DNA of 64,000 nucleotides, from the NCBI RefSeq assembly GCF_050320075.1, contig NZ_CP190018.1; one strand, written 5' to 3'. Below are positions 24,301 to 27,300 of this stretch, one piece after another (within the stretch, counting starts at the first letter, position 1; the number at the start of each line of letters is the position of its first letter). Made by a program: the position numbers. Source of the stretch: Escherichia coli (GTDB lineage Bacteria; Pseudomonadota; Gammaproteobacteria; Enterobacterales; Enterobacteriaceae).

Positions 24301-27300
24301 AATGCCTATGATGTCTCAATGCTGTATGTCAGCGATCATGGCGAAAGTCTGGGTGAGAACGGTGTCTATCTACATGGTATGCCAAATGCCTTTGCACCAA
24401 AAGAACAGCGCAGTGTGCCTGCATTTTTCTGGACGGATAAGCAAACTGGCATCACGCCAATGGCAACCGATACCGTCCTGACCCATGACGCGATCACGCC
24501 GACATTATTAAAGCTGTTTGATGTCACCGCGGACAAAGTCAAAGACCGCACCGCATTCATCCGCTGATTTCTCCCTGTATTTTTTCCAAACCCACCGCAC
24601 ACTCCATTCGTATTATGGGCGGTGGGGTGGGGTTTGTTATGCCGTATTTATCAAATAAACGCCTACTTGCTGAGATGAGTATCGCTCTTGTCATGGCGAT
24701 CGTTGCCACGCTGACCCTTGAGCACAGTCAGATTGATCTGATGGTCGCTGATTGGTTTTATCTGGGTATGGGGCATTGGATGGTTGCCAAGCAAGCTTTT
24801 TTGCCAGATTTGCTACTGTATTCTGGACTAAAAAAGCTGCTGATGGCGATGCTGATCTACTTGCTGGTTGCGACCATTTGCCGTGCTTATCATGAGAAAA
24901 AGGGCAATGCTATCACTGCCAAGTGGCTTGTCCCAGTGACAAAATTTCGCGTGCGTGAGCTTGCGTATCTGGTGCTGACTTTGATCCTAGTGCCGACAGT
25001 TGTCGCGTCATTGAAGGCATATACTCATGTGGTCTGCCCTGTGCATTTGACGATTTTTGATGGTACGCTGCCGTATTTGCCGATGCTTGATAGTATGCGT
25101 AACACCATTCCTGATAAGTGCTTTCCTGCGGCGCATGCCAGTAGCGGATTTGCGCTGTTTGCCTTTGCGTTTGCGCCAAGTTTGCGCCGCCGTCGTGGTG
25201 CGATCATCATCGTGGTGATGGCATTGGGCTGGGCGATGGGCTGCTATAAGATGATTATTGGCGATCATTTTTTGAGCCATACGGTGGTGTCGATGATGCT
25301 TGCGTGGGCGATGTCGGCAGGGCTTGCGTGGGTGTTTTTTAAGAAGGGTGAACAAGTTTAATCGGCTGAATTTACAATCCAAGTGCAACAAAAAAAGAAG
25401 TACTCATCAACTAGAATATAATTTTGTTTCCACACAAAAACCACTTCCAAATGATGAGTACTTCCTACCGACATCTTACAATAAACGAGCGAGAAAAGAT
25501 AATGATTTTACTCGCACAGGGCAAAAAATAAGCAGAAATTGCCAAAGCACTGGGACGTAGCTCCAGCACCATTTCTCGCGAGCTGAAACGACACGCTCTA
25601 GAAAGCTACAGTGCAACGAACGCACAAAACAGCTATTTGAAGCATCGTCAAAATAGCAAAGCACAGCGCAAATTAGAGCAGCCTGAATATTTCAATTTGG
25701 TGCAAGAAAAGTTTCTGACAGAAAACTGGTCGCCCGAACAAATCAGCGCACGATTAAAATTGGAAAAATCTGAATTATCCATTAGTTATTCAACCATTTA
25801 TCGTGGTATTTATTCAGGGTTGTTTGATATAGGCGAACGCAAAGCCAGTCGCAAACTGCGCCACAAAGGCAAAACACGGCATACAAAAAATCATCATGAA
25901 AAACGTGGCAAAATTCAGATATCCAACCATTTGAACGACCGTCCCATTTCGGCGCAAAATCGCAGTCGCTTTGGACATTGGGAAGCCGATACCGTACTGG
26001 GTAAAGCGGGTGGAGCTTGTTTGCTGACGCTGACGGAACGCAAAAGTCGTTTTGAGTTGGTGAAGAAAATTCCTGCCAAAAAAGCCGAAGCAGTCCAAAA
26101 AGCCATGATTGAATTGCTGGATTCACATATATTGCGGTCAATTACGCCAGACCGTGGTAAAGAATTTGCCCAACATCGTTTGGTAACAGAAGCACTGGGT
26201 GTAGAATTTTACTTCCCCGAGCCGCATCAACCGTGGACACGGGGAACGAATGAAAATACAAATGGGTTACTTCGTGAATACTTTCCGAAGCACCAAGACA
26301 TCAATCAGTGGAGCGAAGTTGATATTCAACAGGTGATCAATAAACTGAATTTACGACCACGTAAATGTTTAGGTTGGAAAACACCTTATGAAGTTTACTT
26401 CAAAAAATCGTTGCACTTGGTTTGACAATTCAAGAGAAAAAACCCGGCGCTAAATGCTTACCGGGTTTTAGATTTATCAGGCAAATAGCAGTGTTAACCG
26501 CTAATCTGCTCCATCGCCTGCAAAATACGCTTATCTGAAATCGGATAAGGCGTACCAAGTTGTTGAGCGAAGTAACTAACGCGCAACTCTTCTATCATCC
26601 AACGGATCTCTTTCACGTCTTCATCCTCACGACGTGCGGGCGGCAGTTTGTTGATCCATTGCTGCCACGCCTGCTGGACATTTTCGACTTTCAGCATCTG
26701 AGCACGGTCGCGATGTGGGTCAACCGCCAGTTTTTCCAGCCGTTTTTCAATCGCCTGCAAATAACGCAGCGTGTCGCCCAACCGTTTGAAGCCGTTACTA
26801 GTGACAAAACCGCGATATACCAACCCGCCCATCTGCGCTTTAATGTCAGAAAGCCCCAGCGCCATGGTCATATCCACCCGCCCTTTCAGACGTTTATTGA
26901 TATTGAACACCGCAGTAAGGATTTGCTCGACCTGCTTCGCAATATCCACCACCGTGTCGTTCAGTTCAGCGCGGACTTTTTCATGCAGCGCAGCAAAACC
27001 TTCTTCCGTCCAGACCGGGCCACCATTGGCGTCGATCAGTTGATCCACACCGCAGGAGATACAGTCGTCGATCAGCTCCAGCACTTTGCCATACGGGTTA
27101 AAGTACAGCCCCAGCTTGGCTTTGTTTGGCAACTTCTCATGCAAATATTTGATTGGCGAGGGAATATTCAGCAGCAGTAGACGGCGAAGACCGTTCCACA
27201 TTGCCTGCTTTTGTTCCAGCGGATTATCAAACAGTTTGATCGCCACGCTGTCGCGTTCATCCACTAGCGCTGGCCACGCCTTCACTTTATAGTTGCCACG

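Follow-up and report, generated by a model that had tools for sequence, protein, structure and literature searches.

A canonical complete Tn6330, a colistin-resistance transposon, occupies positions 21686-26434 of the window, the 64,000 nucleotide stretch of Escherichia coli DNA analysed here, and lies between a three-ORF islet next to ydcF and the RNA helicase gene hrpA (Table 1). The element consists of a 1070 bp ISApl1, a 2609 bp mcr-1/pap2 segment and a second 1070 bp ISApl1, the two ISApl1 copies being in the same orientation and identical at 1068 of 1070 positions. Its left end begins with GCTGAATTTAC at base 21686, while the right outer end, contributed by the downstream ISApl1, terminates in GTTTGACAATTCAAG with the last base at 26434, an end which is read as GTTGCACTTGGTTTGACAATTCAAG in the interval 26200-26800. 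The dinucleotides AT and CG at the inside ends of the segment are those reported as a feature of every intact Tn6330 by Snesrud et al. (PMC5821093). In its two direct 1070 bp ISApl1 copies, its 2609 bp mcr-1/pap2 segment, its AT/CG inside ends and its 2 bp outer duplication the window element is like Tn6330 as known elsewhere.

Table 1. Coordinates of the features in and around the Tn6330 insertion, in window positions.
Feature	Position	Strand	Basis or remark
ydcF (DUF218)	19271-20071	-	PF02698, E = 7e-15; RefSeq name ydcF at identical locus
Three-ORF islet (125, 152 and 130 aa)	20187-21512	-	Between ydcF and hrpA terminator; absent from K-12
2 bp target site duplication AG, left copy	21684-21685	.	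Empty-site match with single AG
Upstream ISApl1, 1070 bp	21686-22755	+	IRL and IRR ends present
IS30-family transposase of upstream ISApl1, intact, 324 aa	21772-22746	+	NF033563 transpos_IS30, E = 3e-92
mcr-1/pap2 segment, 2609 bp	22756-25364	+	Inside-end dinucleotides AT 22756-57, CG 25363-64
mcr-1	22942-24567	+	NF000465 MCR-1 family, 1302.7 bits (cut-off 1100)
pap2	24615-25361	+	NF028536 PAP2_near_MCR1, 547 bits (cut-off 475)
Downstream ISApl1, 1070 bp	25365-26434	+	Transposase Q27*
2 bp target site duplication AG, right copy	26435-26436	.	Empty-site match with single AG
hrpA intrinsic terminator	26437-26469	-	Fold, K-12 identity and score
hrpA (ATP-dependent RNA helicase), intact, 1300 aa	26494-30396	-	NF008348, 2623 bits, end-to-end match

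The distance from hrpA to the islet and ydcF has grown by 4.75 kb, in agreement with the first-pass annotation, which had described them as separated from their upstream sequence by the insertion. None of the three islet ORFs gave a match in Pfam, NCBIfam or PADLOC. Of 5,418 E. coli genomes, about 586 carry the 1.4 kb islet (about 20187-21660). On the opposite side, a 2163 aa ORF is located beyond azoR on the minus strand (32384-38875).

Insertion point and origin of the element

As two 2 nt flanks match by chance with a probability of 1/16, the pre-insertion site was reconstructed by joining positions 21086-21685 to 26437-27036 with a single AG retained, giving a 1200 nt empty site. Among 5,426 complete RefSeq E. 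coli genomes, this empty site is 100% identical across all 1200 nt in many chromosomes, for example MRSN346647, CFSAN061763 and Ecol_545, and at least 80% of it is covered in 586 genomes. Thus, both the point of insertion and the duplicated AG are defined exactly, and the earlier placement of this duplication directly beside the A/T run of the hrpA terminator is confirmed by the rebuilt site.

The occupied junction, in contrast to the empty site, had no match in the same 5,426 complete RefSeq E. coli genomes, and our literature search returned no report of mcr-1 or Tn6330 together with hrpA or ydcF. Location at the hrpA terminator therefore distinguishes the window element from Tn6330 elsewhere in the genomes and literature searched. 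IS copies are a classic source of assembly misjoins, and a junction absent from every complete genome searched is what would be seen if the transposon had been misplaced by misassembly of its repeated ISApl1 copies. However, both junctions are exact, carry a matching 2 bp duplication and jointly restore a 100% identical empty site, a pattern which a misjoin would not yield, and we regard an assembly artefact as extremely improbable.

The two ISApl1 copies are distinguished by substitutions at IS positions 80 (T>C) and 165 (C>T) in the downstream copy relative to the upstream copy. The former, at 25444, is located 7 nt upstream of the transposase start codon, while the latter converts CAA to TAA at 25529-31, creating Q27* in the downstream transposase. 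The same Q27* allele is labelled 'internal stop' by RefSeq in two other genomes. Judged from its reading frame, the ISApl1 copy adjacent to hrpA is already a pseudogene, in which respect the window element is unlike Tn6330 with intact copies.

The allele is not confined to the window. Over its full length, Q27* and the other substitution included, the window Tn6330 is identical at 4749 of 4749 positions to that of the chicken E. coli YZLc1-3, and the Tn6330 of EC17CM2 differs from that of the window by one base. In both YZLc1-3 and EC17CM2 the transposon resides inside an integrase- and traF-bearing element and is flanked by a CT duplication. Thus, a Tn6330 allele with one of its two transposase genes inactivated is present at two or more unrelated chromosomal sites. 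The identical allele at another site, with a different duplication, in another strain suggests that the unit is still able to move, the Q27*-bearing transposon presumably being mobilized by the transposase of the intact upstream copy.

Promoter-like hybrids are formed at the two IRL junctions, at 21670-21699 and 25349-25378, both on the plus strand and facing into the transposase gene, in which a -35 element contributed by the flank (TTCAGA or TGAACA) is positioned 18 nt from TACAAT in the IRL. These are consensus matches only, and the overall count of such matches equals the shuffle expectation.

The hrpA terminator in the occupied and empty alleles

The terminator begins 24 nt past the hrpA stop codon (26494-96) on the same strand, and its plus-strand sequence, immediately to the right of the AG duplication at 26437-26469, reads AAAAAACCCGGCGCTAAATGCTTACCGGGTTTT. 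On the minus strand it is composed of an A-tract (26469-66), a 5' arm CCCGG (26465-61), a 13 nt loop region containing an inner 2 bp stem, a 3' arm CCGGG (26447-43) and a U-tract (26442-37). The corresponding RNA proceeds from the stop codon through 24 nt ending in AUCU to AAAA CCCGG UAAGCAUUUAGCG CCGGG UUUUUU CU, after which the IS sequence CUUGAAUUGUC is entered. The 31 nt hairpin has a folding energy of -15.1 kcal/mol (z = -3.97), none of 200 shuffled sequences being equally stable, and the tail directly 3' of the stem is UUUUUUCU, with U at seven of the first eight positions.

The hairpin is base-for-base identical downstream of hrpA in K-12 MG1655 and the flanks on both sides differ, a pattern expected of a functional terminator. 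As in other rho-independent terminators, the hairpin is GC-rich, with an A-tract before it and six U residues after it, and is conserved across E. coli lineages, while the long 13 nt loop region with its inner 2 bp stem is unlike the simple form. The loop also accounts for the absence of this hairpin from the output of our consensus promoter and terminator scan, in which loops are limited to 8 nt; overall counts in that scan equalled the shuffle expectation and it is used here for passing remarks only. A scan of 19000-31000 against Rfam detected no family, and the literature search found neither published 3'-end data nor a paper on the hrpA terminator. The K-12 and window lineages part immediately past the T-run of the terminator, indicating that the spot just beyond it is variable in its own right.

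Tn6330 is situated at the distal edge of the hrpA U-tract, as initially annotated, with the IS starting 8 nt past the last G-C pair. The insertion alters only positions 9-12 of the tail, from UUAU to CUUG, leaving the hairpin and tail positions 1-8 as they were, the latter with U at seven of eight positions in the occupied, empty and K-12 alleles alike. The hairpin was also the same in 101 nt folds of all three contexts. Comparison of terminator prediction with and without the insertion, which had been suggested as a check, gave a lower but still positive hairpin-plus-T-tail score, 15.7 in the occupied and 21.0 in the empty allele, with 18.2 for the K-12 allele; these scores, obtained with a formula of the type of d'Aubenton-Carafa (1990) and modern energy parameters, have meaning as relative values only. 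On this scale the predicted effect of the insertion is within natural allelic variation. We infer that termination is practically as efficient as before the insertion and that the two convergent transcription units are insulated from each other by the terminator. Downstream DNA modulates intrinsic termination modestly. Some residual uncertainty consequently remains for termination at this site, where the downstream duplex is now IS sequence and the distal tail at positions 9-12 is changed.

hrpA, on the minus strand, converges with the transposon genes on the plus strand. The first-pass annotation had further pointed out that hrpA read-through would cross ISApl1, pap2 and mcr-1 in antisense orientation, and proposed that local transcription could therefore affect mcr-1 expression or the levels of transposase antisense RNA. 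The geometry is as described; an effect on mcr-1 or on the transposase is unsupported by the sequence, given the unchanged hairpin and 8 nt tail and the Q27* codon. An insertion which weakened or bypassed the terminator, with antisense read-through altering resistance or transposition, would be in keeping with the convergent arrangement, with the replacement of UUAU by CUUG in the distal tail and with the decrease in score from 21.0 to 15.7. Against this, the hairpin and the first eight tail nucleotides are those of the empty site, the occupied score is near that of the natural K-12 allele, and the transposase gene next to hrpA is already disrupted by its nonsense codon, which would make its antisense control irrelevant. 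In addition, mcr-1 is separated from the hrpA-side end of the element by more than 1.8 kb (it lies about 1.9-3.5 kb in), and antisense transcripts would encounter, ahead of mcr-1, a minus-strand terminator-like hairpin at 24920-24903 with the tail CUUUUUCUCA, antisense within pap2, which is a consensus match only. We therefore consider antisense read-through with such consequences very unlikely, and favour a terminator which should still halt hrpA transcripts ahead of the transposon.

Two further candidates for an altered transcriptional context were rejected. An outward-facing hybrid promoter at the right-hand junction would have TTGACA in the IRR (26422-27) as its -35 element, but CGGCGC is found 16-18 nt on and there is no -10. 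Competing RNA structures contributed by the IS were also dismissed, as the terminator hairpin persists in the 101 nt fold and downstream RNA is still unmade when termination is decided.

Read in the reverse direction, from ISApl1 towards hrpA, the hairpin of the window is followed by the tail UUUUAGAU and scores -12.2 versus 17.3 for the K-12 allele. This reading is weak in the window lineage because the upstream tract is only A4. Weaker insulation of hrpA from transposon-side transcripts is accordingly predicted for the window lineage. The K-12 hairpin (locus L002, 4983-5021) lies between A6 and T6 and has a terminator score in both directions.

ISApl1 target preference and terminator edges

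Target preference was derived from independent ISApl1 junctions. Species-representative genomes, among them those of Neisseria, Aggregatibacter, Actinobacillus and Moraxella as well as MAGs, contributed 30 loci, metagenomes five loci and E. coli chromosomes 10 complete ISApl1 copies. In 64 independent half-sites, the 2 nt duplication is followed outward by W-T-AAAA(A), as in CCATAAAAAAGCC, TCATAAAAAC and ATATAAAAAATA. Of 35 independent IRR flanks, 21 had a run of at least four A residues starting 2-6 nt from the IS end, compared with a background of 4.5% (p = 7e-20), and position count matrices indicate that the IRL side mirrors this pattern. ISApl1 is known to generate 2 bp duplications in AT-rich targets (PMC5404521), and targets of the IS30 family have been described as imperfect palindromes with a central GC bias (PMC9927407); the W-T-AAAA(A) half-site refines this description.

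The window target, TTCATAA-AG-AAAAAACC, has AT-rich sequence on either side of the duplicated AG, and the A6 run presented on the plus strand by the hrpA terminator, AG|AAAAAA, is itself an ISApl1 half-site. With a two-sided matrix built from these 64 half-sites, without the window site, the insertion point ranks 297 of 59,221 positions (top 0.5%), the left half being a moderate match only. About 300 positions in the window score equally well or better, and the motif thus explains the suitability of the site, not the choice of this one site. The central tetramer, AAGA, contains a single G/C; published targets always contain at least one G or C in this tetramer and are all-GC in 45% of sites (PMC9927407). 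In comparison with targets of the IS30 family (ISApl1, IS30 and IS1655), the AT-rich flanks are shared, while the AAGA centre is less GC-rich than is typical.

These observations are most readily accommodated by a simple series of events. The IS30-family transposase of ISApl1 would have pasted the complete Tn6330 into the intergenic spacer between hrpA and the islet with a 2 bp AG duplication, the site being used, in this scheme, because it matches the ISApl1 target preference, with the terminator U-tract supplying the A-run on the plus strand. As the cut would fall beyond the U-tract, the hairpin would survive together with the 8 tail nucleotides closest to it, and the insertion is expected to be nearly neutral, hrpA being intact and the islet and ydcF merely displaced. 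We consider this reading, in which Tn6330 sits at a target-motif site with the hairpin and proximal tail surviving a nearly neutral insertion, to be likely. With the terminator left intact, the feature is an ordinary Tn6330 insertion at a motif-matching, harmless site, already known in kind; one more chromosomal home of mcr-1 is recorded, which matters little beyond bookkeeping. At this position mcr-1 would be expected to be stably inherited with hrpA untouched, the host terminator probably shielding the transposon from incoming transcription. A terminator U-tract which doubles as an ISApl1 half-site also helps to predict harmless places for Tn6330 to settle.

The coincidence of half-site and U-tract raises the alternative that insertion is directed by structure, ISApl1 recognizing intrinsic terminators as a palindrome plus A/T tract, which would make terminator edges genuine hot spots. 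Besides the window insertion, five or more independent copies of ISApl1 are inserted 2-5 nt past the A/T tract bordering a GC hairpin (L006, L011, L025, L026 and L046, the last being a locus in E. coli CP026935), and ISApl1 at L045 lies within a hairpin arm. The published imperfect palindromes of IS30-family targets (PMC9927407) would also be compatible with recognition of such structures. Hairpins directly following the A-run were counted at 28 half-sites with a run of at least five A residues and at 856 control A-runs from the same DNA. Hairpins of -7 kcal/mol or below were found at 12 of the 28 half-sites (43%) and 170 of the 856 controls (20%; p = 0.006), and at -12 kcal/mol or below the corresponding values were 5/28 (18%) and 58/856 (6.8%; p = 0.04). 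At the intermediate threshold of -10 kcal/mol, however, the values were 6/28 (21%) versus 90/856 (10.5%), with p = 0.07. The enrichment of ISApl1 at terminator edges relative to A-runs in general is thus about 2-fold and borderline, from a small sample (28) and with hairpin thresholds picked after the data had been seen. A scan of metagenomes for the IRR end yielded five loci only, too few to sharpen this comparison. Approximately 80% of sites have no hairpin, and an excess of about 2-fold is what survivorship would give, since insertions just past terminators are harmless. Recognition of terminators as such is, in our judgement, unlikely.

The broader proposition that ISApl1, Tn6330 and mcr-1 are found at distal U-tract edges more often than the A-run preference predicts, with the hrpA site and the five loci listed above as instances, is likewise unlikely. 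If true, terminators would be safe-harbour hot spots at which colistin resistance becomes fixed in chromosomes. ISApl1 occurs at 920 places in RefSeq E. coli, and the word 'terminator' was not found in the ISApl1 and Tn6330 literature searched.

Settlement just after terminators has precedents in the bacterial class C group II introns and in Tn7, which inserts downstream of glmS. The window insertion resembles these in being immediately distal to a terminator with no gene disrupted. In contrast to class C group II introns and Tn7, which recognize their sites specifically, the link between Tn6330 and the hrpA terminator in the window appears to be a by-product of A-run preference combined with survivorship.
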